Shown here piece after piece: positions 8,580 to 46,993 of a stretch of 57,594 bases of DNA. Under the pieces are notes generated by a model. That model had not been told where the DNA came from. It searched no databases and was given only the letters and a program-made list of their open reading frames with translations. The stretch is from a virus. Taxonomy: Duplodnaviria > Caudoviricetes. The first letter of the stretch is position 1. Every line of letters starts with the position of its first letter. The stretch is from the IMG/VR virus record IMGVR_UViG_3300009604_000012, positions 1 to 57,594 of that record. One strand, given 5' to 3'. The translations under genes were made by a program, and so were the position numbers.

Positions 8580-10676
8580 ATGCCCAAAGAAGACCTCGCT
8601 GGCGATGTGAACGTGAAGTTCGAGGGGTGGCGAAAGGATAGACGCCCACACGAGCTTCAGTGGTTCATCAACGCCGCGCATCGTCGTGGGCAACAGACCA
8701 GCGAAGCCGAACCTGTCTGGAGACGGGTGCGCTCGGTAGATGACATCGAGGAACCGCTGAGTAAGCGGCGACCGTCGATCAATCGCCTGCAAGCCAAGCA
8801 TCGAGCACGGTTCGCGAAGTTCGCTCGGGCGCGTCCCATGCCCATCGTGGTGCCCTTTACCAGTGACCGCAAGGACCGACAGGACGCGAAAGCCTCCGAA
8901 CGTGCCTTGAATTACTACTGGGAAAAGCATGGCATGGAAACCAAATACCTCGATGCGCTGCTCTGGGCAGCGGATTGCGGGAAGAGTTTCTGGTGGGTGC
9001 ATTGGGATAATGACGCGATTGTGCCCGTGAGTGAAGAACGCGACGATGGCACGATGGGCCTCGCTGATGAACAACTTGGGGATATCCGGGTTGAAGTGGG
9101 CAATGCCTTTGAGGTGCTTGTCGCGGACCCGAAGATTTCGCGCATCTCCGACCAACCCGAAATCATGCGGGTGAAGGTGCGGGATGTCGAGGACCTACGG
9201 AAGCGCTACCCCAGCTCGGCCAAGAAAATCCACGGGGACACCACCTATCATCATTACTTTGAGTTCGAGCGGCAGATGGCAACATTGGCGACGAGACCCT
9301 TGGGGTCCTTGGCAAGTTTGTCCATGCCGGTGGGCGAGAGTGATGGCTCGAATAAAGCAGAACTCCCCAAGGCATTAGTGAAAGAACTCTTCACGGCACC
9401 GAATGCCACCCACCCCAAAGGACGGTATGTGGTGGTTATTGGGGATGTAGTGGTAAAAAAGCAGGATGAATTGCCATTTGGGTTCTTTGATTTGGAAAAC
9501 CCCTTCCCGGTGGTGGAGTTTCAGGACATGCCCCAGGTCGGGCAATTCTGGACCTCGACGTTCATTGAACAACTGATTCCGATCCAACGTGCCTATAACA
9601 ATCTCCGGGCGCAGTTGGAAGAACAGATTGACATGAACATCCACCCCAAGTGGTTGGTGCCCAAACAAGCACAGATTCCCGACACAGCATTCACCAATGC
9701 CACCGCAGAAGTGGTGGAGTGGAACTATATCCCCGGTATGCCGGAACCCCATGCTATTACGCCGGGGAATATCGCTGCCGATGCGTGGCGATTCGCGGGG
9801 ATGCTCCGTGAGGAACTCGATGATGTCTCCCAAATCCAACCCTCGATTGAGGGGAAAGTCGGTTCAGCAAAAAGCGGATTCCAAACGAACCTCCTCCAAG
9901 AAGCCTCCGACGCGGTCCACGCGCCCGATGCGCGGGGTTTTGAACTGTCCATCCAAGACGCCGCGATAAAAATAAGACGGATGATGCGCTTGGGGTATAC
10001 GTCTGAGCGCATGATGTCATGGGCCGGACGGAACTCCTCCCCGGAGGTATTCGCGTTTAGTAACGCACAGATTGATGAACATGCGTCGATTCGGGTGCAG
10101 GTCGGGTCAGCGATTGGTGGGCTGAAAGCCACACAAATCCAACAGGCCCTTGACTTGTATAGTGCCGGGTTGTTGGGTGATCCGAATGACCCCGAAGTCA
10201 AACGCAAGACTTTGGCATCGCTGGACCTGCGTGGGATGGAAGACGCGCAGGAACGGGCGAATCTGGACGAAGAACAGGCACGAGCGGAGACGATGGACAT
10301 GCTCCGTGGTGAAGCGGTCACCGTGCCGCAGTTCTATGAGAATCATGACATTCACATCGCAGCGCATACCGAGGAGCTAAAAGGTCCTGCGGCAAAGACA
10401 ATGGACCCGCAGATACGCCTCGACCTCCTCGCACATATTCTGTTGCATGTGAACTTTGTCAATCCACAGGTGGCTTTCGGCCTGACTCAGAAGTATGAAC
10501 TAACAGAGCGACTCGTACGACCGGGGTTGATCGAACCGCCGCCACCGCCTCCTCCACCGGGCGTAGGCCCACCGGGAGGGGGACCACCCGGACCAGCACC
10601 GGGACCGCCGGGTCCTCCTGGTCCACCACCAATGGGACCCCCGCCGGGACCTCCGGGACCGCCCACCGTGGGCTAA
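8580..10676 (+). CDS. Portal protein (P22-like) with Pro/Gly-rich tail
   Basis: 698 aa, between terL and scaffold. LIPIQRAYN...HPKWLVP pattern; SAKSG motif. Confidence 0.88.
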   Translation: MPKEDLAGDVNVKFEGWRKDRRPHELQWFINAAHRRGQQTSEAEPVWRRVRSVDDIEEPLSKRRPSINRLQAKHRARFAKFARARPMPIVVPFTSDRKDRQDAKASERALNYYWEKHGMETKYLDALLWAADCGKSFWWVHWDNDAIVPVSEERDDGTMGLADEQLGDIRVEVGNAFEVLVADPKISRISDQPEIMRVKVRDVEDLRKRYPSSAKKIHGDTTYHHYFEFERQMATLATRPLGSLASLSMPVGESDGSNKAELPKALVKELFTAPNATHPKGRYVVVIGDVVVKKQDELPFGFFDLENPFPVVEFQDMPQVGQFWTSTFIEQLIPIQRAYNNLRAQLEEQIDMNIHPKWLVPKQAQIPDTAFTNATAEVVEWNYIPGMPEPHAITPGNIAADAWRFAGMLREELDDVSQIQPSIEGKVGSAKSGFQTNLLQEASDAVHAPDARGFELSIQDAAIKIRRMMRLGYTSERMMSWAGRNSSPEVFAFSNAQIDEHASIRVQVGSAIGGLKATQIQQALDLYSAGLLGDPNDPEVKRKTLASLDLRGMEDAQERANLDEEQARAETMDMLRGEAVTVPQFYENHDIHIAAHTEELKGPAAKTMDPQIRLDLLAHILLHVNFVNPQVAFGLTQKYELTERLVRPGLIEPPPPPPPPGVGPPGGGPPGPAPGPPGPPGPPPMGPPPGPPGPPTVG

Positions 10677-11579: not shown

Positions 11580-12809
11580 ATGGCGAATATGAATCTCACC
11601 ACAGCCGCCAATGTGCTGAAGACGTTTTATCTTCCGCCATTGCGTCGGTTGTTGAACAACCAGACGATTTTTTGGAATCGTTTGGAACGCAACGAGAACT
11701 TCAACGTAGAGGGAAAAAACTTTACGGTGCCGTTGCATGTCAGTCGGCATACGCAGGCTGGCGCGGGACGTGCTGAAGAAGGCACACTGCCAGCGAAGGA
11801 TTCGCAGGGATATAACCAAGCGGTCGTTCCCGCCAAGTATATCTATACGCGCATCCAGATTTCGGGGCAGGTCATCAGAGCCACCAAGAGCAATGCGGGT
11901 GCCTTCATCCGTGCGGTGCGGTCTGAAGTTGAAGGAGCCACCCGCGATACCAAACGGTCAGCCAACCGGCAGGCCCATGGTGACGGTCGGGATGCGTTGG
12001 CCTACTACGTGAGCGGGTCAGGGACCTCGGTTGTTGCTGATGACAACTTGGGGAACTCCTTTACCCATGTGGGGCCGAAGGCCACCACGGTTGACTTGAT
12101 CGATGTCTCGGACAACTCGACCGTTCTCAACAACAGCACCACCATCTTGGCTGGTGCCGATGTCGCCACCGGGGTCACCATGACCTTGGGCGATTCCATC
12201 TCCGGGTCAAAAGCGGATGGGGACTATTGGGTGCTTGAAGATACCCTTGGGAACCAGATGACCGGGTTGGAAGCGATTGTGTCTGCATCGAATCCTCCGT
12301 TGTTGAGTGGTGGGTTGCATGGCATCGTGGTGTCAGGGAACAACTGGTGGCAGTCGCAGATTGTGGGCGATGACACCTCAATGGTAGACCTGCGCTTTGC
12401 GAACATGCAGCGTGTCATTTCCAAAATGTCACAGGCCAGCGATTATGATAAGGATGATATCGAGTTTGGTCTCGCCTCCTATTTCATGATCGATAAGTAT
12501 TACGAACTCTGCGCGAATGAACGTCGTGCGGTGAACGTGATGCAGTTGGACGGTGGGTATGAAGGTGTGGAGTTCTCGGGGATTCCGCTGGTTGCGGATG
12601 CCCAGGCGAAGCACAATCGTATCTACTTCGTCGTACCAGATGCGTTGAAGATTTGCCGGATGTCAGACTTCGACTGGATGGACGACGATGGCGCGGTCTT
12701 GAACCGTGTCGTGAATACGGATGCGTATGAAGCAACGCTGTTCCACTATGGCGATATCGCTTGCGTGGCACGGAATGCCTTGGGCGCATTGGTCGGTCAG
12801 AACGAATAA
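11580..12809 (+). CDS. Major capsid protein (HK97 fold)
   Basis: 409 aa after scaffold; AEEGTLP, IQISGQVI, GLEAIV and FSGIPLVAD segments typical of major capsid proteins. Confidence 0.9.
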   Translation: MANMNLTTAANVLKTFYLPPLRRLLNNQTIFWNRLERNENFNVEGKNFTVPLHVSRHTQAGAGRAEEGTLPAKDSQGYNQAVVPAKYIYTRIQISGQVIRATKSNAGAFIRAVRSEVEGATRDTKRSANRQAHGDGRDALAYYVSGSGTSVVADDNLGNSFTHVGPKATTVDLIDVSDNSTVLNNSTTILAGADVATGVTMTLGDSISGSKADGDYWVLEDTLGNQMTGLEAIVSASNPPLLSGGLHGIVVSGNNWWQSQIVGDDTSMVDLRFANMQRVISKMSQASDYDKDDIEFGLASYFMIDKYYELCANERRAVNVMQLDGGYEGVEFSGIPLVADAQAKHNRIYFVVPDALKICRMSDFDWMDDDGAVLNRVVNTDAYEATLFHYGDIACVARNALGALVGQNE

Positions 12810-14617: not shown

Positions 14618-17600
14618 ATGAAAAAGTTGGTAGCGAGTCTCCTGTGTGTGGGGGTCCTAGGAGTGGTGTCTGCGTCCGCGCAAGACCCTTCAGCGGGTCC
14701 CTTTACCACAGTGACCGAGATTACAGTTACTGGCATTGCCGATGTTGATTCCCTGCGTTTCGACGCAGAGAACCTCGATGTTATGCTAGCCCGAGGTGGT
14801 GCGAATAGATTGGAATTGGCAGATGGAGATTCCTTCAGACTAATCAATGGCACATTCCAATTCGGGGGCGGCGATGGCGTTGCTGTCACGGAGGATGGCG
14901 ACGGAGCGATAACCTTTACAGGGGAAGGAAATGGGAGCGACGAGAACCTGACATGGAACTATGACGACACCGCGAACACCGTGGTGATTTCCAGTAGCTC
15001 CGGCGTCACAACCCTCACCTACACTTCCATCGGGGCGACCTTCGGGGCGGCTCTATCGGTGAGTAGTGGGGTGGTAACTATCTCCGATAGCTCCGCAGGA
15101 GCGTTGGATGTAGGAGGTGGTCTGAATATCGGGACCGGGAATGTGGCCTTGATTGGTACGGATGGGCGCATAAACGGTCCCTTGAGTTCCACGATTATTG
15201 ATGATCTCAGCGGAGCGAACCTCACGACACTCAACGCAAGCAACCTCTCATCTGGCACCGTGGCTACCGCAAGATTAGGAAGTGGCACTGCGAGTTCCTC
15301 TACCTTCTTACGGGGGGATGGGTCATGGACCTCAGTTGTTGCGGGACCCGGTGGGTCTGATACCCAGGTACAGTTCAATGATGGTGGTGCTTTGGCGGGG
15401 GATTCGGGGTTTGTTTTCGATAAGGATGCGAACTCGGTGGACATCACCGGCACAGGCGCAGATGCGCTGGATGTGGGTGGTGGGTTAAACATTGGAAGCG
15501 GCAACGTGGCGCTCGTAGGGACCGACGGGAAGATCAGCGGTCCCCTCAGTTCGACCATTATCGATGACCTGAGTGGCGCGAATCTTACCTCACTCAACGC
15601 TGGGAATATCTCGTCTGGCACCCTCGCGGTAGCGCGTGGAGGCACAGGAGCAGCATCTTTAACTGATGGGGGATTATTGTTTGGGAGTGGCACTGGAGCG
15701 GTCACAGCATTGGGTGTGGCGACGAATGGACAGATTCCTATTGGCGACGGCACGACAGACCCGCAGCTTGCTACTATTTCAGGCACCTCCAACGAAATTG
15801 ACATCACTAACGGGTCAGCCTCGATCACGGTGGGGATTCCGGCGTCAGCCACGATTACCACAGCCTTGACCATCAGTGGCACAGGGGCATCGTCGTTGGA
15901 CATTGGTGGTGGATTGAATGCTGGCACGGGAGATGTCGCGTTGGTTGGAGATGATGGCAGGATCAATGGACCACTCAGCTCAACGATTATTGATGACTTG
16001 AGTGCAGCGAACCTGACTTCGATCCCCGCAGGACAACTCACCGGGTCGATATTGAATGCACGGCTACCCACCAACATCGACATAGGCGGGACCCTTGATG
16101 TCACCGGAGCGACAACATTGGATAGCACCTTGGCACTCGTAGGGGCTGTCACATTTAACGATGCCGGGGGTGATGTCGACATTCGCGCCGAAGGCGATAG
16201 CGTCACCAATCTCTTCACCCTCGATGCCTCGACAGACCGTATTGGTATTGGTGTCACAGCACCAGACAACATCCTGCATGTATTACAAACCGGTGCAGAC
16301 TGGGGGATGTTTATCGATTCCTCCAGCACCTCCTACGCTCCGGGCATTCAGCTCAGACCCAACGGCACGGCGAAAGGGTGGGTCTCCGCAACCAACGCAG
16401 GTGCGTTGTTGTTGGATGGCAACTCGATTGTCGTGGTGAATGAGGGGTCAGCTGATAAGGACTTTCGGATTGAATCAGACGACAACGCCAATATGCTCGT
16501 GGTGGATGGAGGCGATGACCGGGTAGGGATCGGCAAAGCCTCTCCGACAGTGACCTTAGATGTAAATGGTGCAACGGACATTTCTGGACATACGGCACTC
16601 GACTCGACGCTGTCCATCGGGTACGGGTCGATTGGCGACTATCAGCAAGTCTTCATCGGCGGCACCCTTGCGTCTGGCGGGGCATCCAGCCACGCCGAAG
16701 CGATGGTAGTGCAGACCGCGATCACGGGCGCGACAGGCGATACTGGGTGGTTGGCTGGGGTGAAGATTGGACCTGCTATTACAACACAAGCCTCAGAGAC
16801 GATAGTCCATGCGACGGCGCTAATTGTCAACGAACCGGAGATCACCGTTGGCAGTGGCGCGACGGTGACGACGGCGAGCACGTTGTGGATTCCAAATGTC
16901 CCCACTGAGGGGACGAACAATTACGCCTTGTTCGTAGATGACGGTGTGTCTCGATTCGACGGCAATGTGGGCATTGGTGGGGTGACGGTTCCTGGCGCAC
17001 GGTTGGAAATAGAGGACGGCGGCATCTCACACCCTGGTCCGTTGTTTATAAGTCGGCAGGATGACGACGATGTGTGGAACATGATGTTGGTCAATGACTC
17101 CTACAGCACGACGGCAGTATATGGTGTGCGGATGACCGTTGCGACAGATGGCGATTTCAATATTTATGGATCGGACAAGACGAGCAGCCCCGGCCACATC
17201 TCTTTCTTTACAGACGAAGCACGGCGAATGCAGATCGGCAGTAATGGACGGCTGGCGTACAATCTCGCCGATTTCAACAATGTGTACGGCAATCTGGAAA
17301 TCGAGGGGATCGGAGACGACATCGGGGTCAATATGTATCCCGACGACGCTGACGCGCACCAGCTGGTGTCGATGGGTGCTGGTGGCGACGGAGATGCTGC
17401 CAGACGGGGCGTGTTGAAGATCCTCGCCACCGATGACGGAACAAACAATTCGATTGCGATGGGATCTGTCGGTGGCTTAAGTTCCGATTTCAACATTTTT
17501 ACGCGCCATCCCACCACTGGTCTTGGTAGGGTCATTCTGCGTATAAAGGGCGACGGATCGACTGAAGCAACTGGGGCATTTTCAAAAGCGAGTGGGAGCT

Positions 17601-18157
17601 TTAGAATCCCTCACCCGATCTGGCCTGCGACTCACGACCTAGTGCATAGTTTCGTGGAATCGACAGACACGTTGCTCCTGTATCGGGGTGTCGCAACGGT
17701 GGATGGTACAGAGACAATCGATCTCGATGCCTATCTTGATTTGGTTGATGATACGTGGGATGCCCTAACGCGAGACCCACAGGTATGGGTGAGTAATGCC
17801 TCTGGGTGGGAACAGGTGCGTGGCACCGTGACTGATGGCATCTTGACGCTCGAAACCCAAGACCCGACTGCGACTGGGGTTGAGGTAAATTGGCTTATTG
17901 CGGCTGAACGGCAGGACGATCATATTAAGGAAACAAACTGGACGGACGATGATGGGAACCCCATTCTTGAACCACTGAAGCCCCTGTTTAGTACCGTTGC
18001 ACCTCCGACATTTGAGGAGAGCGTTGGTGACATCTATCCAGACATCGAAGTTGAGGACACAACGCCAGTGGCACCAGAACGATATCCGGCATTCCGCTTC
18101 ACGGACGAGAACGGGAACACAATTACGGAAGACGAAACCGATGAAGATATCATTTGA
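14618..18157 (+). CDS. Tail fibre/spike-like protein with N-terminal signal peptide
   Basis: Gly/Thr/Ser-rich repeats, RIGIG/NVGIG fibre motifs, C-terminal KASGSFRIPHP chaperone-like domain; N-terminus MKKLVASLLCVGVLGVVSASA|Q. Confidence 0.8.
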   Translation: MKKLVASLLCVGVLGVVSASAQDPSAGPFTTVTEITVTGIADVDSLRFDAENLDVMLARGGANRLELADGDSFRLINGTFQFGGGDGVAVTEDGDGAITFTGEGNGSDENLTWNYDDTANTVVISSSSGVTTLTYTSIGATFGAALSVSSGVVTISDSSAGALDVGGGLNIGTGNVALIGTDGRINGPLSSTIIDDLSGANLTTLNASNLSSGTVATARLGSGTASSSTFLRGDGSWTSVVAGPGGSDTQVQFNDGGALAGDSGFVFDKDANSVDITGTGADALDVGGGLNIGSGNVALVGTDGKISGPLSSTIIDDLSGANLTSLNAGNISSGTLAVARGGTGAASLTDGGLLFGSGTGAVTALGVATNGQIPIGDGTTDPQLATISGTSNEIDITNGSASITVGIPASATITTALTISGTGASSLDIGGGLNAGTGDVALVGDDGRINGPLSSTIIDDLSAANLTSIPAGQLTGSILNARLPTNIDIGGTLDVTGATTLDSTLALVGAVTFNDAGGDVDIRAEGDSVTNLFTLDASTDRIGIGVTAPDNILHVLQTGADWGMFIDSSSTSYAPGIQLRPNGTAKGWVSATNAGALLLDGNSIVVVNEGSADKDFRIESDDNANMLVVDGGDDRVGIGKASPTVTLDVNGATDISGHTALDSTLSIGYGSIGDYQQVFIGGTLASGGASSHAEAMVVQTAITGATGDTGWLAGVKIGPAITTQASETIVHATALIVNEPEITVGSGATVTTASTLWIPNVPTEGTNNYALFVDDGVSRFDGNVGIGGVTVPGARLEIEDGGISHPGPLFISRQDDDDVWNMMLVNDSYSTTAVYGVRMTVATDGDFNIYGSDKTSSPGHISFFTDEARRMQIGSNGRLAYNLADFNNVYGNLEIEGIGDDIGVNMYPDDADAHQLVSMGAGGDGDAARRGVLKILATDDGTNNSIAMGSVGGLSSDFNIFTRHPTTGLGRVILRIKGDGSTEATGAFSKASGSFRIPHPIWPATHDLVHSFVESTDTLLLYRGVATVDGTETIDLDAYLDLVDDTWDALTRDPQVWVSNASGWEQVRGTVTDGILTLETQDPTATGVEVNWLIAAERQDDHIKETNWTDDDGNPILEPLKPLFSTVAPPTFEESVGDIYPDIEVEDTTPVAPERYPAFRFTDENGNTITEDETDEDII
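15100..16050 (+). repeat. Three ~53-aa internal repeats in the fibre gene
   Basis: LD(V/I)GGGLNxGxGxVAL(I/V)GxDGxIxGPLSSTIIDDLSxANLT at about 15100, 15463 and 15895. Confidence 0.85.
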
Positions 18158-18398
18158 TTACAAAGTGGCGTTCTTTGGATTACTTACTGTGCTTGCACTT
18201 GCATGGGCAGGGTATGCGGAATACCGTATCCAGACATTCCAAACAACACCTGCCATGGAATGGTTGTTCGCAGAGACAAACATTCGGAATACAGAAGGCC
18301 AAGCCCTCACTCGGGCGCAGATGCTTGATCAGGTAATGCAATCGGCGTTGGAAAATACGGCTGCTCAACAGCAGCCTCTTCCAAATGAAGAAGAGTAA
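18141..18398 (+). CDS. Small membrane protein
   Basis: Likely start MKISFDYK at 18141; one TM helix; coupled to the next gene. Confidence 0.6.
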   Translation: MKISFDYKVAFFGLLTVLALAWAGYAEYRIQTFQTTPAMEWLFAETNIRNTEGQALTRAQMLDQVMQSALENTAAQQQPLPNEEE

Positions 18399-19324
18399 TG
18401 CTGACCTTTAAGGATATTCAAGATCAGGTCCTGCTCCTCTGGGATTCTCCGGGGGAGACAGGAAACTTTCTGACCATCGTGAAGAATGCAATCAACGACT
18501 CTCATGCAGAGCGGTGTAATGCACAACGGTGGAGCTTCATGCTGTGGGAGGATGTCCTCACCTTTACTACTGTAAGTGGCACCTTGAACTATCGTCTTCA
18601 TCCACTCTTCCACAGGTTCCACCGTGTTTACAATACGACTGATACGCACAAGATGGTAGAAGTACCACCTCGTGAATATTATGAAGCTCCCGAGACCAAG
18701 TTCCATTTCCACATGGTGGAACCCTCCCCGGTGGCGGCAGATTTGGCATCGGCGGGGACGCTCTCCATGGTGAGCAACTCAGCGTCAGACACGACACCAA
18801 CGCTCATATTGCGGCTTATTGATAATGATACTGCTTCAGGTTTGGTCGGCACGGGTGAGATATCGGAAACGCTCACCGCCAACGGTACGTCTACCGTGAC
18901 GACAGCAGCGAGCACCAGTAAGATACTGTCAGTGACCAAAGGGGGAACATGGGTAGGGACGATGACGCTCCGGGATGCAGACGGCAACATCTTACTCACC
19001 CTGTCACCGACAGAGTATGGAAAGGTCTACCCCCAGATTCGCCTCCTCAAAGACCCAGAGCAAGCCGATACTATTGAGTATCGCTTTTACCGTCGCCCGA
19101 GGATTCTGTCAGCGGATTACGACATTCCAGATATTCCATATCCCTTCAGTCGGATTCTCATCTGGGACACCCTGCTCCTGCTTGCGTCTTATGACGAAGC
19201 GAAAGAACCGGGGATGTGGGTGGAGCAACGTCGGCAGTGGGACAAGAAGCTCGCGGATAACTATCTCGAAGGCCAAGCCCTTGGTGGGCGTGTGCGGCAA
19301 GTGCGTGATGTCACGATGAGATAA
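18398..19324 (+). CDS. Head-tail adaptor (P22 gp4/T7 gp11-like)
   Basis: MLTFKDIQDQV...IVKNAIND...WSF and DIPDIPYPF patterns; gene position. Confidence 0.7.
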   Translation: MLTFKDIQDQVLLLWDSPGETGNFLTIVKNAINDSHAERCNAQRWSFMLWEDVLTFTTVSGTLNYRLHPLFHRFHRVYNTTDTHKMVEVPPREYYEAPETKFHFHMVEPSPVAADLASAGTLSMVSNSASDTTPTLILRLIDNDTASGLVGTGEISETLTANGTSTVTTAASTSKILSVTKGGTWVGTMTLRDADGNILLTLSPTEYGKVYPQIRLLKDPEQADTIEYRFYRRPRILSADYDIPDIPYPFSRILIWDTLLLLASYDEAKEPGMWVEQRRQWDKKLADNYLEGQALGGRVRQVRDVTMR

Positions 19325-19326
19325 CG

Positions 19327-21534
19327 ATGCAATTCCGAGAGACCTTCAAGAGTTGGCCGCGAGGCGTGGTGAGTGCTGGTCGCCCAGACCGGATTCATGC
19401 GGAGTCTGCGACGGATGCGACCAATGCCGCATTGGTGCATATCACCGGCTCACCGGTCACTGCCGTGCCACAGAAGCGGTTGGGATGCAGTATCCAAACT
19501 GCTGCGGGAGTTACCGGGAATGCGTCGATTCTTGGGTTGGATTGGTTTCGACGACGGAGTGGCGCGACATATACCGATTACTCACTTGCGGCGAGTAGTG
19601 GTGGGCGTTTGGATAAGTTGGCAGGGAGTGCCTGGGCACAAGCCGATTCAGGCACAGCAGCGTGGGCCACGAATGATGCCGATGGTATTCCGTCGATGGA
19701 GACCATGAACAACTTGTGGTTCATTGTCAACGGGGCAGACCAGAAGAAGTTCGATGGCACGAACATTACAAATTTTGGAATCGCCGCACCCGCCGCACCA
19801 ACCGAAGCGGTGCTCGGAGATTCAGGGAATCTGAATGGCACCTATCAATTTAAACTTACCTATTACAACAGCAACACTGGACACGAGAGTTCCGCGAGTC
19901 TAGTCAGCGATGACTGTGTAGCAAGTAGTAAAAAGGTGACGGTGAGTTGGGTTGCTCCCGCAGGGGTTGATGAACAGGTTACGCATGTGCGCGTGTTCGT
20001 GCGCGAGACCAGCACCCAGTCAACGTGGTTCCGGTTAAACGCCGAAGCCGATGCGGTGTTGGATGGAGGAGCCTACGCAGCAGCGCATGGTGGGTGGGCT
20101 GTTATAGATGATGGAGCAGGGAGCATCCGTCTCGATATCACCACAGCGTCGATCAATGACCTGATTATCCAAGTGCCCGGTGAATCAGAGAATAACCCAC
20201 CCTCAAGCAGTGCATCATCGATTACCAAGTATGCCTCTCGGATGTTCTATACCGATGGGGTGGATCTCTTCTACAGTAAGATTGGCTTCCCCGAAGCCTT
20301 TGATACGAGTGATTATGAACGGGTCAATCCTGATGATGGGCAGCGCATTATTGGCCTCCTCGCAGTGACAGAAGGCATGCTCTTTATTTTCAAAGAGCAC
20401 TCGCTCTATGCCTTGCGAGGACTGGACCCGAACAGTTGGGAAATCAGACTCGTCAGTGAATCGATTGGCTTATCGGGTGTGCGGTCGTTTACAACACTCG
20501 ATGGCATTGCCTACTGGTGGAGTCAGTCGGGACCCTATCAGTGGTCATCAGGAAAAGGTGTGCAACCGATTGGCTTCCCTGATGTGTCGGATAAGTTTGA
20601 TGAGAGTAATGTAAGAGCAAACCTCTTGCACACTACTATCGTAAATAAGGATGTCGAGCGGCAGCGTATCTTCTTTGCCTATCCCCACGATACCGCGTCA
20701 GCACGGAACACGAAGCTCCTGGTGTATAACCATCGGCTTCAGGTGTGGGAAGGAACGTGGGACCCGATGGATATCAGTGCGTTAGGGAATCTTCCCGGCA
20801 CCAACAACGCGCCGTTTTTACATATCGGGAATTACTCAGGTCGTTTGTTTCGGATGTGGGATGGAGCCGTCGATGGGGTGCGGTTGAGTAGCGGAGGCAC
20901 GTTCTATACCCTTAGCGGGTCTCCATCTGAGACTTCGGGAGCAGCAACGCTGACCGATAGCACCGCGACCTTTGATACCGCGAACGATGGCTTAGACCAG
21001 TTGGTGGTAATTGCGATTGCCCCGGATGGCACCACCCAACGTCGGATTATCAGTTCAAGCACGGGCACCGTTTTGACGGTGACCGCGAATTGGTCACAGA
21101 AGCCTACGAGTAACTATACGTATGTGATTGCGGCCCCAGACTTTTCATGGTCGACCATCCACAGTGACCGGGTGCAGGGGCGGGATGGCTTGATGTTCTC
21201 ATCCCCCTTTCGTCGGAAGCGCTACAAACAACTGTTGGTCTCAGCGCTGAGTGCAACGGGAAATGCCAATGTCGATGTGGATGTGCATTTGGATACAAGT
21301 GACACACGCGCTCTGTCAGTTACCGCATCGGCATCGGAGGTTTCTGGTGCGATCTTCGGCACAGCGATCTTTGACACGAGTGTCTTTGGTGAAGCGGGGG
21401 TTGCGACGATTAAGAAGCGAATTGGGCGTTCAGGACGAGCGATTGGGTTCGTCGTGCGAAATCGGGAACCGAACACACATATCTTGTTACTGGCCTTGTC
21501 CTATATGGGGACCTTGGTCTCGGAGAAATCATAA
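19327..21534 (+). CDS. Tail nozzle/stabilisation protein (P22 gp10/T7 gp12-like)
   Basis: 735 aa, beta-propeller-like (LFYSKIGFPEAF, LFIFKEHSLY, LVYN); follows the adaptor. Confidence 0.75.
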   Translation: MQFRETFKSWPRGVVSAGRPDRIHAESATDATNAALVHITGSPVTAVPQKRLGCSIQTAAGVTGNASILGLDWFRRRSGATYTDYSLAASSGGRLDKLAGSAWAQADSGTAAWATNDADGIPSMETMNNLWFIVNGADQKKFDGTNITNFGIAAPAAPTEAVLGDSGNLNGTYQFKLTYYNSNTGHESSASLVSDDCVASSKKVTVSWVAPAGVDEQVTHVRVFVRETSTQSTWFRLNAEADAVLDGGAYAAAHGGWAVIDDGAGSIRLDITTASINDLIIQVPGESENNPPSSSASSITKYASRMFYTDGVDLFYSKIGFPEAFDTSDYERVNPDDGQRIIGLLAVTEGMLFIFKEHSLYALRGLDPNSWEIRLVSESIGLSGVRSFTTLDGIAYWWSQSGPYQWSSGKGVQPIGFPDVSDKFDESNVRANLLHTTIVNKDVERQRIFFAYPHDTASARNTKLLVYNHRLQVWEGTWDPMDISALGNLPGTNNAPFLHIGNYSGRLFRMWDGAVDGVRLSSGGTFYTLSGSPSETSGAATLTDSTATFDTANDGLDQLVVIAIAPDGTTQRRIISSSTGTVLTVTANWSQKPTSNYTYVIAAPDFSWSTIHSDRVQGRDGLMFSSPFRRKRYKQLLVSALSATGNANVDVDVHLDTSDTRALSVTASASEVSGAIFGTAIFDTSVFGEAGVATIKKRIGRSGRAIGFVVRNREPNTHILLLALSYMGTLVSEKS

Positions 21535-21995
21535 TGAGTCAATTTCCAATTGGTGGTCCGTGGCACCAGCGTCCTCCATTTCCTCCACGGTGGCCTGTAC
21601 CTGGACGTGAGGGACCGATTTTCGATGGACCTCCGCTCAATGACGATGGCACGAGGCCGATACCAAGAAGACCAGGTGGTCCTATGCAGCGCACGGGTCC
21701 CTATGTACCCCCACCGGGTATGCCGATTCCAGGGGGTCCGGGCGATCCAAGGACCAACCCACGAGCGGGTGGGATACCTGAGCCAATGGGAGAGCGGATG
21801 CTAGCCCCTGTTGAGGGACCGCCGTTGGTTGCCAACACACCACTGGCTAGACGCCCGATGTGGACACCTCCACCGTTACCACCAACACCATACCCAGTAC
21901 CTCCGAACCAAGTAGGTGCTGCTCGATCACCGAGAGTACTGCCTCCTGAATTTGGAATGGCATTACGGCAGTACTTGATGAATAGGCGTGTGTAA
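21534..21995 (+). CDS. Proline-rich low-complexity protein
   Basis: TAATG coupling on both sides. Confidence 0.65.
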   Translation: MSQFPIGGPWHQRPPFPPRWPVPGREGPIFDGPPLNDDGTRPIPRRPGGPMQRTGPYVPPPGMPIPGGPGDPRTNPRAGGIPEPMGERMLAPVEGPPLVANTPLARRPMWTPPPLPPTPYPVPPNQVGAARSPRVLPPEFGMALRQYLMNRRV

Positions 21996-22375
21996 TGGCA
22001 CTCGAACGTCAACCACCCGAGGACCGGCAGGACCACTTGCCGATCAATCGCCCAGACTCGTTAGCGCGTCCGAGTTTCGATGCGAATGTGCTCGAAACCG
22101 AACGGACGAAGCGGTCTCCGTTTGCGGCGTTTACGTTTGTGGATGTGACGTTTGGCACAGCGAATACGGATTACATCATCTCGCACACACTGACAACACC
22201 AGACCCCGAGGTGATTCGCTGGTGGGTAATACAGAATGACACCGCTGGAGTGGTCTATCGGGACCCGTCAGCATCGGGTGTCGCCCCACGCAACTGGGGA
22301 GAGGGGTATGTCGTGTTGAAGTGTTCGGTGGCAAATGCCAATGTGCGGTTACTGTTGTTTGTGGAGCAGATATGA
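21995..22375 (+). CDS. Putative tail protein
   Basis: Coupled ORF; IISHTLTTP beta-rich pattern seen near fibre genes. Confidence 0.6.
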   Translation: MALERQPPEDRQDHLPINRPDSLARPSFDANVLETERTKRSPFAAFTFVDVTFGTANTDYIISHTLTTPDPEVIRWWVIQNDTAGVVYRDPSASGVAPRNWGEGYVVLKCSVANANVRLLLFVEQI

Positions 22376-23700
22376 AGAAACTAGTGCTTGCCCTCATGCT
22401 ATCAATGCTCTCTCTAAATGTGCATGCTCAGATTGATCCAACGAATACCTTTTCCGTTGGGCAGATCATTACGGCAAGTGGGATGAATACAAACTTTGTG
22501 GACCTAGGAGCGTCTGCACTCAATCGTGCATCTGGAGGAAATATCACAGGGAACATTACCGTCGCGGGTGGTATCACGATTGATGGTGCTGATGTCGGTG
22601 CTTATCTGGCGACCAATGTCTATGCACAGGATAGCGGTGCGGCAGGCGACCCCTCGTTTAGTTGGGTGGGGGACACCGATAACGGGATGTTCTTGGGTGG
22701 TACAAATATTGTGGACTTCGCCACCGCAGGGTCAGCACGGATGCGAATCGCCGCAGATGGCACCGTAGCGATTAACTCCACCTCTGCGAGTGCGTTGGAT
22801 ATTGCAGGAGGATTAAACGCAGGATCGGGGAATGTCGCAATCATCAGCGCAGCAGGGAAAATCCCTGCACTGCATGGGGATTTCTTCGCGGATACAGCGG
22901 TGGCCGCGAGCTTGCTGACAGGAACGGTGGCAACCGCGAGACTGGGATCAGGCACCGCGAGTAGTTCGACCTTCCTCCGAGGTGATGGGTCATGGCAAGC
23001 GGTGACAGCGGGTGTGGCAGGCAGTGATACCCAAGTGCAATATAACAATGGTGGAGCACTGGGTGGCGATTCAGGATTCACATTTAATGACTCTACGAAT
23101 GCCGTGACCATTACCGGCACCGCCGCGAACTCCCTTGATATCGGTGGGGGACTGAACGCTGGAACCGGGAATGTTGGGGTGATTAACGCTGCCGGGAAAA
23201 TCCCTGCGATTTCATCAACCTACTTCGCCAGTCTCGCATTGGCGGCATCAAACCTCACCGGGTGTTGCCGGGTGTTGCAGATTGTGGAAGGCACCACGAC
23301 AACGGATGCGAACACTGCGAGTGGCACCTATGCGGACACAAACCTCACAGCCGCGATTACGCCAGCGAGCACGGATAACAAGATTCTTGTCATCGTGACA
23401 CAGAATGGTGTGGTGGCCTATGACGTAGGGGGAGGAGGACCGTCAGCAACCGGGATGGATCTGAAGCTCCTTCGTGATGCAACGGATATCGGCCTGATCG
23501 TCGGTGATGGGGCAAACGCCTATGATAATGAGGGGTCAAGAACGGCAGCATTTGTCGAACTCGACTCGCCAAGCTCCACGAGTGCGTTGACATACAAAAC
23601 CCAATATCGCGTAGCGGGTGGGGGAGATAGTGATAGTCGTGCTCGGGTGCAATTGAATAGTTCTGAAAGCAAAATCATCCTGATTGAAATCGGGTATTGA
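22372..23700 (+). CDS. Second tail fibre-like protein with signal peptide
   Basis: True start probably 22372 (ATGA overlap): MKKLVLALMLSMLSLNVHA|Q. NTFSVGQIITASGMNTNF head motif; shares modules with the 14618 protein. Confidence 0.8.
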   Translation: MKKLVLALMLSMLSLNVHAQIDPTNTFSVGQIITASGMNTNFVDLGASALNRASGGNITGNITVAGGITIDGADVGAYLATNVYAQDSGAAGDPSFSWVGDTDNGMFLGGTNIVDFATAGSARMRIAADGTVAINSTSASALDIAGGLNAGSGNVAIISAAGKIPALHGDFFADTAVAASLLTGTVATARLGSGTASSSTFLRGDGSWQAVTAGVAGSDTQVQYNNGGALGGDSGFTFNDSTNAVTITGTAANSLDIGGGLNAGTGNVGVINAAGKIPAISSTYFASLALAASNLTGCCRVLQIVEGTTTTDANTASGTYADTNLTAAITPASTDNKILVIVTQNGVVAYDVGGGGPSATGMDLKLLRDATDIGLIVGDGANAYDNEGSRTAAFVELDSPSSTSALTYKTQYRVAGGGDSDSRARVQLNSSESKIILIEIGY

Positions 23701-23711
23701 GGAATTTTGGA

Positions 23712-23936
23712 ATGCGTTTAGACAAGATTGATAACCTCGAAGATGTGCGCCAATGGATTTATGGGCATGACGCACGGTCAGAGGAGCGGTGGGAATACCA
23801 AGGGAAAGCCAACGAGACTATTGACCAGAAGCTCGCCTCGATCAACATGCGCTTGAGTGCATTGGAACGTCGGGTGATTTGGATTTCGGCGGTGTTCTCG
23901 GCTGGTGGCGCAGCAGGAGGATCGTTCTTCTTTTAG
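23712..23936 (+). CDS. Holin-like/XhlA-like small membrane protein
   Basis: Coiled coil followed by a C-terminal TM segment; near the lysin. Confidence 0.5.
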   Translation: MRLDKIDNLEDVRQWIYGHDARSEERWEYQGKANETIDQKLASINMRLSALERRVIWISAVFSAGGAAGGSFFF

Positions 23937-25106: not shown

Positions 25107-25595
25107 ATGACCCCAACGATTGATACGCTCCTCGATGAAATCCTGGCCCGAGAGGGATCGAAGGATACCAATGATCCAAATGATTCGGGTGGGCGTACCA
25201 AATTTGGAATTAGCCAACGCTGGCACCCAGCTGCGTGGGAAGACGGACCACCCACACGCGAAGCGGCGAAGGAGATTTTCTTTAGTCTCTATGTGATGAA
25301 GCCTAAGTTGCATCTGGTTACCCCGGATTATCTCTTGGGACAGCTTGTGGATTATGCCGTGCTGAGTGGGCCACATCGAGCTATCGTCGCGTTGCAGCAT
25401 ATTGTGGATGTTTCCGAGGATGGGTTGCTGGGACCGATCACCTTGGGCGCACTAGCAGCACAGGAACCACGTACGGTGAATAACGCTATCGTAGATCGGC
25501 GTGTGTTGCTCATGACACGGTTAGTACAACAACGACCAAAAGACTTGGTGTGGCTCTATGGGTGGGTCTCTCGGGCACTGAAATTTAGGGTATAA
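25107..25595 (+). CDS. Endolysin, glycoside hydrolase family 108 with PG-binding domain
   Basis: REG...DPNDSGGRTKFGI, DYAVLSG, DGLLGPITL, GWVSR. Confidence 0.92.
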   Translation: MTPTIDTLLDEILAREGSKDTNDPNDSGGRTKFGISQRWHPAAWEDGPPTREAAKEIFFSLYVMKPKLHLVTPDYLLGQLVDYAVLSGPHRAIVALQHIVDVSEDGLLGPITLGALAAQEPRTVNNAIVDRRVLLMTRLVQQRPKDLVWLYGWVSRALKFRV

Positions 25596-25597
25596 CT

Positions 25598-27955
25598 ATG
25601 GCTCTAGGTAATGGATACGGTTTGGTGAACAGTACGGGTGGGATTAAGCGGTGGGATGATTACGATGACCCGAATGCCTCCCAGTCCCAACAGGCGAATA
25701 GGAATGCCCAAGGGGGGTGGGATACAAATAATGATACTTCCTCAGGCGACGGGTGGGTGGCACAACCGGCGCAAGCAGCACAGCCAGCGGCGGGTGGGCG
25801 GACAGACAATTGGTCGAACTTTACCCTGAGTGGTTATGATGATCCGGGTCGTGACCCAGGTGAGCAATATACTCCGCAGGCCCCAGAACCACAGCCAGCA
25901 CCTCAACAGACCCCCGGAGGACGAGGGAGACACCCAGGACCATCTCCATCCGGTGATACCGCACTGTGGAATTGGTGGCAAAATTGGCAACGTAATGCGA
26001 ATGACCCACGAGTTGAAGCGTGGTGGGGACGGTATGCGCCAACAGTATATGGAGATCATCCAACAAATATACAATGGCAACCTTCGGCAAATCCTGCGTG
26101 GTTTGCACAGCAAGCAATAGACCCTGCTTTCCAATCCACGAGAGACCACTGGCTTCGTAACTTACAACAAGGATGGCATCAGGGATTTCTTCATGATCGC
26201 GACCCCTATCAAGAAGGCTTAACCTACTATAAAGACCAAGGTGGTGCTGATTACAATTGGACTGGAACGCAGTGGCGCACGGGTGTGCCAACAGGGTATC
26301 ACCTTGATCCTGAAACGAGTGAGCTTGCAGGCTATAAGGACTGGGCTAAAGAAAATAACATCGTTGGTCCGTGGACAGCAGGGCATGCTGACTTTGCCAG
26401 TTGGCGTGATGATGCCCAATTCCGCAATCAGTGGGCACAGAATACGTTAGCGGCATTTCAAGCGCGGGGCGGTGGTGGCGGAATCTATGCCGACCCACCA
26501 GATGGTATTAACGCCGAAGATTCTAAGTGGGACCAGTGGCTTCGTACCGATGGGGGGAGAGACCATACCTCAGCGAATATCTTAGGGTTTCTGCAAACGC
26601 ACTATGGTGGTCAGTTCAACAAAACAGGGTTAGCCGCCGCACTCCCCATAATGCAATGGCTCTTTGGGAGTCATATCAAAATCGTTGGGTCTGGTGGCGA
26701 TAAGATCGACTTCGGTCCCCCACTTGGTGTCGTAGACCTTATCCGAGATGTCAAAGGCGAGCATGGTGGCACGGCGTGGATTTGGTTACCGGATAAAGAT
26801 AATACCAATCTCCATGGTGGGGGAGGTGGTCGCGGGGCGGCTGGGGCCGGTGGTGGGCAATATGGTGGTGGCCCCCCCGGAGGGTATCAGCCGGGTGCGG
26901 GGGGATGGCAACAAAATCCCTATGGCTCGGGGCAGGGTGGATGGTTTGATCCAACGCAGACTCCTGTAGTGAACTTTCCTGCACCGGGCGTCTCATCACA
27001 GTATGCTCCCGGAGCACCACCCGCAGATGGCTTGCCAACGTATGGTGGGTATCAGTTTACGAATGAAGGACTCCCGGTCTATCAGCAGTTTCAATATGAC
27101 CCGAACATGACCTACCAAGCGGGACAGGTGGGGCAGTTTTCTCCACTGGATCAAAGTGGTCTCAATCAAGTGCAGCGCACTACGGTTCAGCAGATGTTGG
27201 AGAACCCCACACTCAGTGACCAAGTGCTCGCGCAGATGCGTGAACAGCACAAGGACACCGTGTTGAGTATGGGAGAACAACTAGGACAACAAGCAGCTCA
27301 ACGTGCTGCCGCGCAAGGCACCTTTGGTGGGGGGCAATACGGAAGTAGTCTTGGTGACATTCAGAGATCGATGGCTGGGGATATTACAAAAGGCTATCGA
27401 GACCTGAATGTGCAAGCTGCCGACATCAACCGACAGGCACGGGAACGCGCACTTGGGTTATCGGAAGATGTGCTCGGTGGACAGACGAGCCGTGGCATCG
27501 CTGGGTATCAAACGGCGTTAGCTGGGCAGATGGCCCAGGAGGGGTTATATCAACAAGCGGCAGAATCGCTGCGAAATGCTCAAGTACTCAGCGCACAAGA
27601 GCACCAACGCGCCTATCAGAATCAACTCGCGAATCAGGCATGGCTTCGTGAAGGACAGCAGCTTCAGGCTGGTGAGGATCGCTATGCGTTTGGTACGGAA
27701 CAGCAAGCCTCGCAGGATGCGTATCAACGCTATCTCTCCGGTGAAGAACTGCAACAGCGACAAGCGCAGCAGGAACTCGCTCGTTATCAAGCGTGGGCAA
27801 ATCAGCAGGCCCAGCAACAGCAGATGGCGATTCAGATGTATCTCGGTCGTGGCGGTCTCGCGGCTGGACAGGATCAGCTCGCACTCCAGCAGATTGCGGA
27901 GCAGAACAGATATAACAAGTGGCAGTGGGAGAACTTCGGTAATTTATTAGGATAG
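25598..27955 (+). CDS. Putative internal virion/ejection protein
   Basis: Gly/Gln/Trp-rich; C-terminal Gln/Ala coiled coil with AAAQGTFGGG. Confidence 0.6.
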   Translation: MALGNGYGLVNSTGGIKRWDDYDDPNASQSQQANRNAQGGWDTNNDTSSGDGWVAQPAQAAQPAAGGRTDNWSNFTLSGYDDPGRDPGEQYTPQAPEPQPAPQQTPGGRGRHPGPSPSGDTALWNWWQNWQRNANDPRVEAWWGRYAPTVYGDHPTNIQWQPSANPAWFAQQAIDPAFQSTRDHWLRNLQQGWHQGFLHDRDPYQEGLTYYKDQGGADYNWTGTQWRTGVPTGYHLDPETSELAGYKDWAKENNIVGPWTAGHADFASWRDDAQFRNQWAQNTLAAFQARGGGGGIYADPPDGINAEDSKWDQWLRTDGGRDHTSANILGFLQTHYGGQFNKTGLAAALPIMQWLFGSHIKIVGSGGDKIDFGPPLGVVDLIRDVKGEHGGTAWIWLPDKDNTNLHGGGGGRGAAGAGGGQYGGGPPGGYQPGAGGWQQNPYGSGQGGWFDPTQTPVVNFPAPGVSSQYAPGAPPADGLPTYGGYQFTNEGLPVYQQFQYDPNMTYQAGQVGQFSPLDQSGLNQVQRTTVQQMLENPTLSDQVLAQMREQHKDTVLSMGEQLGQQAAQRAAAQGTFGGGQYGSSLGDIQRSMAGDITKGYRDLNVQAADINRQARERALGLSEDVLGGQTSRGIAGYQTALAGQMAQEGLYQQAAESLRNAQVLSAQEHQRAYQNQLANQAWLREGQQLQAGEDRYAFGTEQQASQDAYQRYLSGEELQQRQAQQELARYQAWANQQAQQQQMAIQMYLGRGGLAAGQDQLALQQIAEQNRYNKWQWENFGNLLG

Positions 27956-27967
27956 GGATAGATACTC

Positions 27968-29167
27968 ATGGCAAATGGTATCAATAACATGGTTCCAGCA
28001 ACGCAAGCCTATTTTAATAGGTCCTCGAATCCATATAGGTCCTCGAATCCATATTCGGGTGCTGCCGCCTGGGGAAATCTCGCCAATGCCACTATGGGGG
28101 GTGCAGGCAACGACCGCTCCTTCGCAGAACGGTATATGCCGTATTTCCTCGGTGGTGCCCAATTAGGATTGGGAGCATATGGCGCATACAGAGGTGCTCA
28201 AGACCAACAAGAGCAGAATGCGCTGATGATGATGGAGAATCGGCGCGAGCAGATGAATCAATACCTCGCGGCGAAGGCGATGGCACAAGCGGATCTCTTC
28301 AAGGGATGGGATGCCGCAGCGGTGCAAAGTGCGGTGCAGGGTGTCGGTGCCACGCAGCTCGATCCCTACGCACGGAATCGATTTAAGTCGAGATTGCAGC
28401 TTGCGCGGCTGTTTGGAAATCAGGCAGGAGACTACTCCATTCAGCGTGGGCCACAAGGCTTAACGTCTGTCGGTGGGGCAAGTATTCCACTTGGTGGGCT
28501 TTCGCAATATATCCCTGCGATGTCGCCAGAGGAAATGGCAGAGGGGGCTTCGCGCTTTGATACGGCTGTTTCGGCATTGGTGCCAGCACAACGAGCGGAG
28601 TGGCAGCAGGGTGCGCTGGATGCCATCAATCAAATTCCCGGTAACCCCGACACGCTCTTCGATGACCCTGCGGGACAGTTGATGCAACAGCAGGCATTGA
28701 GAAACTTCTTGGGTGGAGGACAGGAGCAGCAGGAGGGGCGTGGCTTCTGGCGTAACTTCGCGAGGATTGCTGCTCCGATTGCTACGTTTGCGATACCGGG
28801 TGTCGGACCTATCGTTGGAGGAGCACTCGGTGCGTATGGCAACTCCCGGCCTGGAGAGTTTGGGTGGGGAAGTCTCGCAAAGGGTGCCGGAATGGGCTAT
28901 GCCGGGGGTGCGCTTATGGGTGGGGTTACGGGAACGCCTTGGCGTGAGGCATTCAATCCAAACTTTGGAAATCTCGCGAGTGGTGATGCGTGGCGTAGCA
29001 TGCCATTCACCTCGGCGTTTCGCAGTGCTGACGCAGGAGCGGTGTCACCCAGCGTTTTTACAGGTCCTCCAGACATGCGTGGTTGGCTCGGCGGTGGTAC
29101 TTATGGGAGTGGAACTCCTACCTTCACTGGTGGCGGTGCTACGGCAAGATTCCGAACAGGTAACTAA
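27968..29167 (+). CDS. Putative ejection/pilot protein with glycine zippers
   Basis: IPGVGPIVGGALG and GAGMGYAGG motifs; 18-bp tandem duplication at 28017-28052. Confidence 0.6.
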   Translation: MANGINNMVPATQAYFNRSSNPYRSSNPYSGAAAWGNLANATMGGAGNDRSFAERYMPYFLGGAQLGLGAYGAYRGAQDQQEQNALMMMENRREQMNQYLAAKAMAQADLFKGWDAAAVQSAVQGVGATQLDPYARNRFKSRLQLARLFGNQAGDYSIQRGPQGLTSVGGASIPLGGLSQYIPAMSPEEMAEGASRFDTAVSALVPAQRAEWQQGALDAINQIPGNPDTLFDDPAGQLMQQQALRNFLGGGQEQQEGRGFWRNFARIAAPIATFAIPGVGPIVGGALGAYGNSRPGEFGWGSLAKGAGMGYAGGALMGGVTGTPWREAFNPNFGNLASGDAWRSMPFTSAFRSADAGAVSPSVFTGPPDMRGWLGGGTYGSGTPTFTGGGATARFRTGN

Positions 29168-29169
29168 CT

Positions 29170-30723: not shown

Positions 30724-30732
30724 GGACAGCGT

Positions 30733-38600: not shown

Positions 38601-38753
38601 CAAGGAACAGACACATCACGTACGGCTATCGAGAAGCAACTCAAAGAGATCGGATATCAGGGTTACTACACCGATGCGAGTAAGACAGAGATCGTCTGGT
38701 TTGGCGATGCTGTCGAAGGCTGGAACTACCCGTGGAAACCGAAAGGATACTAA
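35631..38753 (+). CDS. Large polyvalent-type protein (glycine-zipper header, DUF7178/glycosylase-like domain, ART-like C-terminus)
   Basis: YSPQ...VTIDTWM...YQAGIW; C-terminal GYQGY....EIVWF; likely start at ATG 35631. Confidence 0.6.
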   Translation: MSDERSSLEEHLITAMLMGTRVLPALGGLAFGGPVGGAAGGMAGETLAQGIERYLGRREEFNPASIGINTVLGGVPLGRVAQAGRWARMGREAAKGAGMGVAADVPLQLAETGAWDPRQTLISAGMGAGLGSLGGIARPKARLRAEPAPVDLDFVPSTAPSITQAQAAKGETGQLLLPGANRLWEKVAVLASGSPGSQAWERLGGVTHGGPRALRGRGERASSALLLEDMLQQIAERKGAPNTQFLKQLGQIDKDTRIRATKLLEKLQAGNEKALTFFGKEAGKKLSRSEQGIIKRQIAALTKVKSGLIDPMGPSGKFPGFKNINLPGTRHFNSKAITKLRYRANSDGTQVPNFPTQSELNGLWARGKPWAAFYSTIPEQIEGVVPPQHQIAFLSDNAGYSPQASPREALVHSVFGASRREAGLHTRGTGVETAWVNRRAIESGIVDPMTGGFSKRGHGQGLDDVGEGGWVEIGQDGLKIRNYRENLLERYDTGDGPIVRMTPNLVKKRMEKGEDMVAWVKHIQDEAVTIDTWMASLYGIDASRLQNTQWGRDMYVAMANDIRRKARKAGKTPSEYQAGIWAGVRQNMMEGGETIGGSLRVDYGQRSLLPKLTIAPGAAGKEITTPIRELVDAIGETELGAGGQGVLPLEIPTGVRYMLPDEEQINVGDVTAAGRTPREKGGGLRPGISEVWAKITAPQVLNTLRMQRSRKDTVGLSKSMRTGEDVADAPVMFVALKNRDQRTGKLAHYSERQWEGLPNLKDLLSFLSDQSHRLAGKEGDTVMGVFFEQGRHAVTDRTHPLFRWTTSKHGGRTTADVSKMIPEKPVTTAKEAARHGSGRPPEYELHGFRTGMDTARLNEQFSVWHNEYYQLVQVEDLAVTVNPKNPNRLVVKKNLGTPRFADESRPESTKYGFTKQQSGDFVGWTTDEGLSFARNQPPNTQRVRGELIYDLFGSPTPVDDITSQQLSFLKRNEHLGAGADSVGGDFRGLLQGTDTSRTAIEKQLKEIGYQGYYTDASKTEIVWFGDAVEGWNYPWKPKGY

Positions 38754-46970: not shown

Positions 46971-46993
46971 AAGGTATGTCCTCCTACAAAAGT

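Follow-up and report, generated by a model that had tools for sequence, protein, structure and literature searches.

In tailed phages, every part of the virion is normally assembled in the cytoplasm. Phage late products that make use of the host Sec machinery include the signal-peptide and signal-anchor-release endolysins and the coat proteins of filamentous phages. Such endolysins are not virion parts; the virion proteins of filamentous phages are exported before assembly, which takes place at the membrane and involves no cytoplasmic capsid. The subject of this report is a pair of tail-fibre-like proteins (fibre-1 and fibre-2) encoded by a virus of the Caudoviricetes (Duplodnaviria), IMG/VR record IMGVR_UViG_3300009604_000012, the whole of which (57,594 nucleotides; hereafter “the window”) was analyzed. 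Both proteins were confirmed to begin with a leader of the Sec/signal peptidase I type, i.e. a basic n-region, a hydrophobic core, and an AxA or VxA site followed by Gln. No paper describing signal peptides on tailed-phage fibres was found in the literature, and PMC6157547, PMC3556154, and PMC5723332 contained nothing relevant; the target proteins of phage diversity-generating retroelements lack signal peptides (PMC6199706).

Comparable leaders occur in cultured phages of Cellulophaga baltica. In phi18:3 (KC821620.1), gp085-087 are annotated as “structural protein” on the basis of experimental tandem mass spectrometry (MS/MS) proteomics, and their leaders end ..GYS↓QVLV, ..VSA↓QTVIK, and ..LNA↓QTVEG (the arrow marks the predicted cut). 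The proteins gp079-083 of phi46:3 (KC821622.1) have the same kind of leader. A Gln at position +1 is also the hallmark of the Q-rule. According to PMC5837995 and PMC10653852, most signal peptidase I substrates of Bacteroidetes expose Gln, which is converted by a periplasmic glutaminyl cyclase to pyroglutamate, stabilizing the exported proteins. The mean share of Gln at +1 is given there as 71% in Bacteroidetes and <9% for most Chlorobi (Ignavibacterium, at 77%, is among the outliers), and the rule is described as exclusive to Bacteroidetes, apart from some Ignavibacteria/Chlorobi outliers. Five genes in prophages of Porphyromonas gingivalis obey the rule (PMC10367356) and resemble the window in that Q-rule leaders are encoded by a phage.

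The two fibre proteins and their leaders

The fibre genes are located in a podovirus-type late module carried on the + strand. Fibre-1 (P0001, 1179 amino acids (aa)) is encoded at 14618-18157 (+) as a long fibre-like preprotein; its leader, MKKLVASLLCVGVLGVVSASA (14618-14680, +), is followed by QD, and the cut is predicted before Gln22. Fibre-2 (P0002, 442 aa; 22372-23700, +) is also a preprotein, and its leader, MKKLVLALMLSMLSLNVHA (22372-22428, +), is followed by QI, with the cut predicted before Gln20. The sites read ASA↓Q in fibre-1 and VHA↓Q in fibre-2, and the n-region is M-K-K in both.

Leaders were called with a home-made heuristic, not with SignalP; it evaluated a basic n-region, an uncharged hydrophobic core, and the -3/-1 rule. 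The cores so defined comprised 16 residues in fibre-1 and 14 in fibre-2. The score of fibre-1 (39.9) was the highest among the 412 six-frame open reading frames (ORFs) of the window, and that of fibre-2 was 31.7. The false-positive rate was about 1% (it flagged 5 of the 396 ORFs ≥100 aa on the antisense strand of 34 related loci); at this rate, the chance that both fibre genes would be flagged is about 1e-4. A lipoprotein signal was considered and rejected, because neither +1 residue is a lipobox Cys and the one Cys in the leader of fibre-1 follows L-L. A signal for twin-arginine translocation was also rejected, as neither leader contains a twin-arginine motif.

The start codon of fibre-1 (ATG, 14618) is located 4 nucleotides (nt) past the stop of the upstream ORF, with GAGGTG 5 nt upstream of it. 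That of fibre-2 (ATG, 22372) is preceded by GGAG and overlaps the upstream stop as ATGA. Both motifs resemble Shine-Dalgarno sequences and are well spaced from their ATGs. A longer reading of fibre-2 from GTG-22321 is used by no homologue; all of them start M-K/R-K-L. The N-termini quoted in the initial annotation were found in the sequence exactly as given, and both ATGs are well supported.

The same annotation had pointed to fibre motifs in the two proteins and to their position among adaptor and nozzle genes. This description was supported: both gave tail-fibre matches, and a gene for an SU10-type adaptor and a nozzle-sized gene are situated between them. In tblastn searches, residues 288-440 of fibre-2 (its C-terminal third) matched annotated tail-fibre proteins of the cultured marine phages MEP402, HTVC026P, HMO-2011, and P-SSP7. 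Fibre-2 also matched PHROG 28766 (tail fibre; E = 1.3e-7), and its closest Atlas clusters were 100% viral. Fibre-1 had no PHROG or Pfam match; tblastn aligned its residues 513-714 with a putative tail fibre of Roseobacter phage CRP-345 and its residues 974-1122 with fibre-like structural proteins of cyanophages. A shaft module of 176 residues is common to fibre-1 and fibre-2 (56% identity). No other fibre-like gene was found in the window, and the adaptor and nozzle genes separate the two. The region yielded no tandem repeats. An AlphaFold2 monomer model of fibre-2, calculated from its homologue alignment (A1), was poor (mean predicted local distance difference test score (pLDDT) 51; predicted template-modeling score 0.23).

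Leader conservation and leaderless counterparts

Homology searches with the two fibres returned 315 and 344 homologues. The mature part of fibre-2 opens with a conserved N-domain (22429-22611, +; QI.P.N.F..G..I.A..MN.NF..L...ALNR..GG.ITG.. in alignments A1 and A5), for which no matching Pfam family was found. From its gene-order position and conservation, this domain is presumed to be a tail-docking module. The domain (QITIPNSF..NxNF..L..ALNRTGGTITG) was present in 52 listed homologues, 49 of which had a leader of 18-29 residues with a basic start and a hydrophobic core (over the distinct leaders, the lengths ranged from 16 to 29). Fifteen homologues at 79-92% identity retain theirs with conservative substitutions. 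In alignment A1, conservation extends to about column 230, with divergence beyond it, and the C-termini vary.

Forty distinct leaders were compared. Position -1 is Ala (38) or Gly (2); position -3 is Ala (19), Val (13), Gly (3), Pro (3), Ser (1), or Met (1), so that A, V, G, or S is found in 36 of 40; and position +1 is Gln without exception (40 of 40). Every distinct leader has 1-3 Lys/Arg within its first 8 residues, and the best 10-residue Kyte-Doolittle mean ranged from 2.28 to 3.59 across 38 of them. Mean pairwise identity was 24% in the hydrophobic core, compared to 39% in the first 25 mature residues. Constant physico-chemistry and a fixed processing site are thus imposed on a drifting sequence, which is the signature of a signal peptide and not of a docking element.

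A profile composed of leader and N-domain was searched against 1.84 billion cluster representatives (50% identity), and 1068 of these matched at E ≤ 1e-3. Among the best 150 of the 1068, a leader followed by Gln was found in 141 (133 by the script rule and 8 by eye) and a leader with Thr or Ala at +1 in 4, for a leader-bearing total of 145. The others were one fragment with an N-terminally truncated leader and Gln, three leaderless proteins, and one unrelated protein. Conservation of the signal in homologues, which the initial annotation had proposed as a check, was therefore borne out. Use of a downstream start, which it had named as grounds for abandoning the idea, was not supported: the first Met after the fibre-2 leader falls within the conserved N-domain and is not itself conserved, and no conserved downstream start was found across the fibre-2 homologues. 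Among homologues of fibre-1, the close ones (P0122 and P0123) retain the leader, and five others (P0124, P0125, P0127, P0128, and P0129) carry a leader of another sequence, which likewise stops just ahead of Gln (..LYA↓QTPDP..); P0126 has none.

Gene order was compared in 34 related viral loci gathered from the alignment of the nozzle protein; nozzle homologues adjoin the adaptor in these 34 loci. Leader-bearing fibre-like genes flank the adaptor and nozzle genes in L048, L050, L056, L059, L060, L066, and L078 (L059, L060, and L066 are the same contigs as L003, L005, and L006, respectively), and one lies nearby in L051. Three homologues without a leader (P0034, P0051, and P0063) start M-A-I-T-I-P.. 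or similar, exactly at the predicted cut. L049 and the L061-L064 group have a leaderless N-domain fibre in the slot after the nozzle (MAITVPYSF.. and MALSIPNTF..). Leaderless N-domain fibres were located at 10424-12802 of L049, 9951-10445 of L063, and 6283-6675 of L085. In L085, the ATG of the fibre directly follows the TAG stop of the nozzle, and there is therefore no hidden upstream leader. The leaderless proteins read ..DK(T/R)GDT.. where the leader-bearing ones read ..NRTGGT.., so they apparently form a sister sub-family; their role in the particle is presumably that of the leader-bearing fibres. No convincing leaders were found in more distant relatives (L067-L081), and in a scan of all ORFs the flagged + strand ORFs of L071 and L073 lacked an AxA↓Q site and were not next to the adaptor and nozzle. 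All 11 annotated fibres of three cultured proteobacterial phages that share fibre domains are leaderless; the leader is therefore not generic.

The residue after the cut was also considered on its own. Gln is absent from the leaderless variants and thus belongs to the processing site, not to the fold. Of 20 other leader-type proteins from the window and related loci, about 12 have Gln at +1, a share of the order described in PMC5837995 for signal peptidase I substrates of Bacteroidetes (mean 71%). By comparison, then, the proposal of the initial annotation that these are genuine export signals stands: the conservation of the leader, the fixed A-x-A↓Q, and the leaderless variants that begin at the cut strongly support real export signals on real virion-type fibres.

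A fibre shaft repeat (..ALDVAGG.N.G.GNV..) was also observed in proteins without the N-domain from the Candidate Phyla Radiation (CPR), Elusimicrobia, and other metagenome-assembled genomes (MAGs), e.g. in L036, a Candidatus Uhrbacteria MAG.

Proposed route of export and its rivals

On balance, and with restrained confidence, we favour the following route. Both fibres would be made as ordinary Sec preproteins, and the leader would carry them across the inner membrane. Signal peptidase I would cleave after the AxA or VxA site to leave an N-terminal Gln, which would probably be cyclized to pyroglutamate, and the fibres would fold and trimerize in the periplasm. Heads and tails would meanwhile be assembled in the cytoplasm without fibres; fibres and particles would meet only once holin and endolysin breached the envelope, and the conserved mature N-domain would then dock on the adaptor/nozzle. 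The endolysin of the window (25107-25595, +; GH108 and a peptidoglycan-binding domain by Pfam and PHROG, without a leader) is relevant here because envelope opening would bring exported fibres and cytoplasmic particles together. Two reasons for export were considered and rejected. For glycosylation, no sequon excess was found in the fibres; for disulfide formation, no Cys is present in mature fibre-1, and fibre-2 has two.

The host bears on the Gln rule. A Shine-Dalgarno core was found for 19 of 48 genes of the window (54% guanine-cytosine content (GC)) vs. a background of 10%, and for 23-73% of genes vs. 7-12% in related leader-bearing loci (48-67% GC). The corresponding figures for two phages of Bacteroidota, used as controls, were 3 of 32 genes vs. 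12% (Cellulophaga phage phi46:3) and 11 of 62 vs. 10% (Rhodothermus phage RM378). Either the host belongs to an atypical Q-rule lineage or the Q-rule is wider than described. In a scan of reference genomes, all matches were to shaft repeats in MAGs (CPR, Elusimicrobia, and others) and none to the N-domain, and a capsid search yielded 208 proteins on contigs of at most 72 kb, from which no host was assignable.

Several points weigh against the favoured route. The anatomy of the leader, its pattern of conservation, the fixed boundary, the leaderless counterparts, and the fibre character of the proteins are shown by the sequences; passage across the membrane, removal of the leader, conversion to pyroglutamate, the compartment in which folding occurs, and when and where the fibres attach are inferred for the window phage. 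Joining fibres to particles at lysis looks costly in dilute water, and we know of no mechanism for it. The leader calls come from our own heuristic and from reading alignments and not from a trained predictor. Because the leader was part of the profile, the ranking is biased toward leader-bearing proteins, and the matches read were the best 150 of 1068. Pro at -3, present in 3 of the 40 leaders, is disfavoured by signal peptidase I. For the other leader-type proteins, 6 of the 12 Gln cases required the heuristic cut to be moved 1-6 residues to AxA↓Q, and some of these proteins are homologous to each other. The GC and Shine-Dalgarno use are unlike those of a typical Q-rule host's phages, and the Bacteroidota O-glycosylation sequon is not in excess in the fibres. 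In phi18:3, the MS/MS annotation is silent on removal of the leader.

It is unlikely, in our estimation, that the fibres are exported without being virion parts, i.e. that they are secreted or displayed on the surface for receptor masking, superinfection exclusion, adhesion, or as decoys while some other protein binds the receptor. The presence in the phage of an integrase and of further exported-type products (a protease and a small ORF, described below) would be in keeping with this, as would the fibre-like repeat proteins with similar shaft modules in bacterial MAGs and the proposal, in PMC10367356, that phage Q-rule proteins modify the host surface. Against it, no further fibre-like gene was found in the window, and these two flank the adaptor and nozzle; the combination of a conserved N-domain and variable C-termini is that of virion receptor-binding proteins; the leaderless versions in the same slot of related phages must be ordinary virion fibres; and the leader-bearing proteins of phi18:3 were annotated from virion MS/MS. 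The initial annotation had offered three fates for the fibres (addition at or after lysis, membrane tethering during assembly, and display by infected cells), and display as an adhesin or receptor blocker is the least favoured of these because the N-domain is conserved, the C-termini vary, and leaderless versions share the post-nozzle slot.

The N-terminus might instead stay uncleaved. As a signal anchor it would hold the fibre at the inner membrane up to lysis; alternatively, it would remain part of the fibre as a helix with a structural or membrane-active function, in assembly at the membrane or in penetrating the envelope. This we regard as rather unlikely. In the otherwise poor AlphaFold2 model, residues 2-12 form a confident helix (pLDDT about 85), the leaders with Pro at -3 would be hindered in cleavage, and signal-anchor-release endolysins are a precedent for Sec-dependent tethering. 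Yet a tether or docking helix needs neither small residues at -1 and -3 nor a Gln after them, and a docking element should be conserved, whereas the core is only 24% identical. The leaderless variants keep the rest of the domain without the whole segment, and the cores are Leu-rich, not Gly/Ala-rich like release-type anchors. That the leaders are gene-calling artefacts, with true starts downstream or chance hydrophobicity in ordinary cytoplasmic proteins, is very improbable. There are GTG triplets at codons 11, 16, and 17 of the fibre-1 leader, with AGGAG beside codons 16/17, but at a spacing of 0-2 nt this is too close to serve as a ribosome-binding site. Nothing equivalent occurs in fibre-2, where the first Met past the leader is the unconserved one inside the N-domain. 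Hundreds of clusters at ≤50% identity preserve the reading frame of the leader, its basic start, and the AxA↓Q boundary, and the heuristic gives few false positives (about 1%).

Should the receptor-binding fibres of a widespread group indeed be exported first, completion of the particle would hinge on lysis and on host machinery (Sec, signal peptidase, and possibly glutaminyl cyclase). Modification of the fibres in the periplasm would become possible. Host-range engineering and heterologous production of fibres would have to take the leader into account, and leaders and their +1 residue would serve as a host-prediction signal for uncultured phages. A broader proposal is put forward tentatively, as one that could as easily fail as hold and perhaps a little more so: that periplasmic building, with attachment to cytoplasmically assembled particles only at lysis, is the rule in a very large, unnamed family of receptor-binding fibres comprising at least 1068 clusters (50% identity), a two-compartment virion assembly, and that this habit and the Gln rule may extend beyond the classical Bacteroidota. 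The last part is suggested because the clade is GC-rich and uses Shine-Dalgarno sites. The N-domain family is large and is absent from Pfam. Because forms without a leader occur in nature, the question can be tested directly; these sister fibres, encoded in the same slot, would provide a ready-made natural control.

Other exported-type products, genome setting, and comparison with known systems

The initial annotation had listed the two fibres as leader-bearing, correctly, and had overlooked two other proteins of the window. A trypsin-like serine protease (40004-40672, +; Pfam Trypsin_2, E = 2.6e-10) also begins with a leader of the Sec type (..MRWLLAVSLVLAMCMTPQTIA↓KD..). As the third exported-type protein of the phage, it differs from the fibres in having a +1 residue other than Gln; its substrates could be periplasmic proteins, the fibres among them. 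A putative small ORF of 85 aa (18141-18398, +; internal ATG) has a hydrophobic N-terminal segment in translation; it overlaps the end of fibre-1 and terminates 1 nt into the adaptor start. Given the leader on the protease and the hydrophobic N-terminus of the 85-aa ORF, several late products may be sent to the envelope. Small leader-bearing ORFs just upstream of the adaptor were also found in L054, L056, L059, L066, and L078; no convincing alignment among these upstream ORFs was obtained (16-25% identity). After fibre-2 lies another small ORF (23697-23936, +), whose translation has a hydrophobic Gly/Ala-rich C-terminal tail (..VIWISAVFSAGGAAGGSFFF) and which could be a holin-like protein or a fibre partner; small ORFs of the membrane or leader type also follow the fibre in L048 and L078. 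A simple hydropathy scan disclosed no clear holin or spanin elsewhere in the window.

The record is a complete virus genome of 57,594 bp (rated 100% complete), podovirus-like and of 54% GC. Its late module comprises, all on the + strand, a large terminase (6104-7774), a P22-type portal (8580-10676), and the scaffold and major capsid protein of an HK97-type head (11580-12809), followed by fibre-1. The SU10-type head-to-tail adaptor (308 aa; 18398-19324; Pfam SU10_adaptor, E = 1.2e-10) and the nozzle-like, nozzle-sized tail protein (735 aa; 19327-21534; weak PHROG matches to connector and internal virion proteins) are both without leaders, and two small ORFs lie between the nozzle and fibre-2. 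Downstream of the endolysin, 25598-38753 (+) encodes a run of large products that matched no family and are probably ejected with the genome or located inside the virion. Inside this run, a 1225-aa protein (30733-34410, +) contains an LPD38 “large polyvalent protein” domain (Pfam, E = 7.8e-13). No tRNA genes were found in the window. The closest cultured relatives by capsid and portal are podophages of Arthrobacter, Microbacterium, and Cellulosimicrobium, at only 21-28% identity, which is too distant to point to a host, and the lineage is therefore an uncultured one.

The - strand carries replication genes, a Dam methylase, a protein of the uracil-DNA glycosylase family, and a tyrosine integrase, the last of which (46140-47111, -) sits in the middle of the replication block. 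A scan for the integrase revealed no integrated copy of the phage among 34 metagenome loci; the best matches (78-79% identity) were on short contigs with no evident host flank, and relatives of the phage were all seen on contigs of at most 72 kb. The family-A DNA polymerase is apparently split. An exonuclease-type subunit (39246-39998, +; PHROG 403, RNase_H_2) closes the + block, and the polymerase domain (42618-44144, -) is on the opposite strand about 2.6 kb away. At the left end (390-2538, -), a DUF7192 protein stands beside an AAA_5 (MoxR/dynein-type) ATPase.

Set against the systems introduced at the outset, the window phage differs from the filamentous phages in that an HK97-type head and a P22-type portal would be built in the cytoplasm and that, of the virion parts, only the fibres bear leaders. 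The fibres resemble the Q-rule substrates of Bacteroidetes in having a cleavable-type Sec leader and then Gln at +1. The Q-rule genes of the P. gingivalis prophages are of unknown function and, in PMC10367356, are discussed as host-surface modifiers, not as tail fibres. The leaderless fibres of related podoviruses share with fibre-2 the N-domain and the slot downstream of the nozzle; unlike the window fibres, they start M-A-I-T.. directly and must fold in the cytoplasm. The Cellulophaga phages belong to another family (Pachyviridae), have 33% GC, make no use of Shine-Dalgarno sites, and have no sequence similarity to the N-domain family (none were among the matches of the fibre searches). Like the window, they nonetheless encode consecutive late-gene products that begin with a Sec-type leader and then Gln, and some of the relatives of these products are named pectate lyase in RefSeq, i.e. 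they are appendages directed at the host surface.

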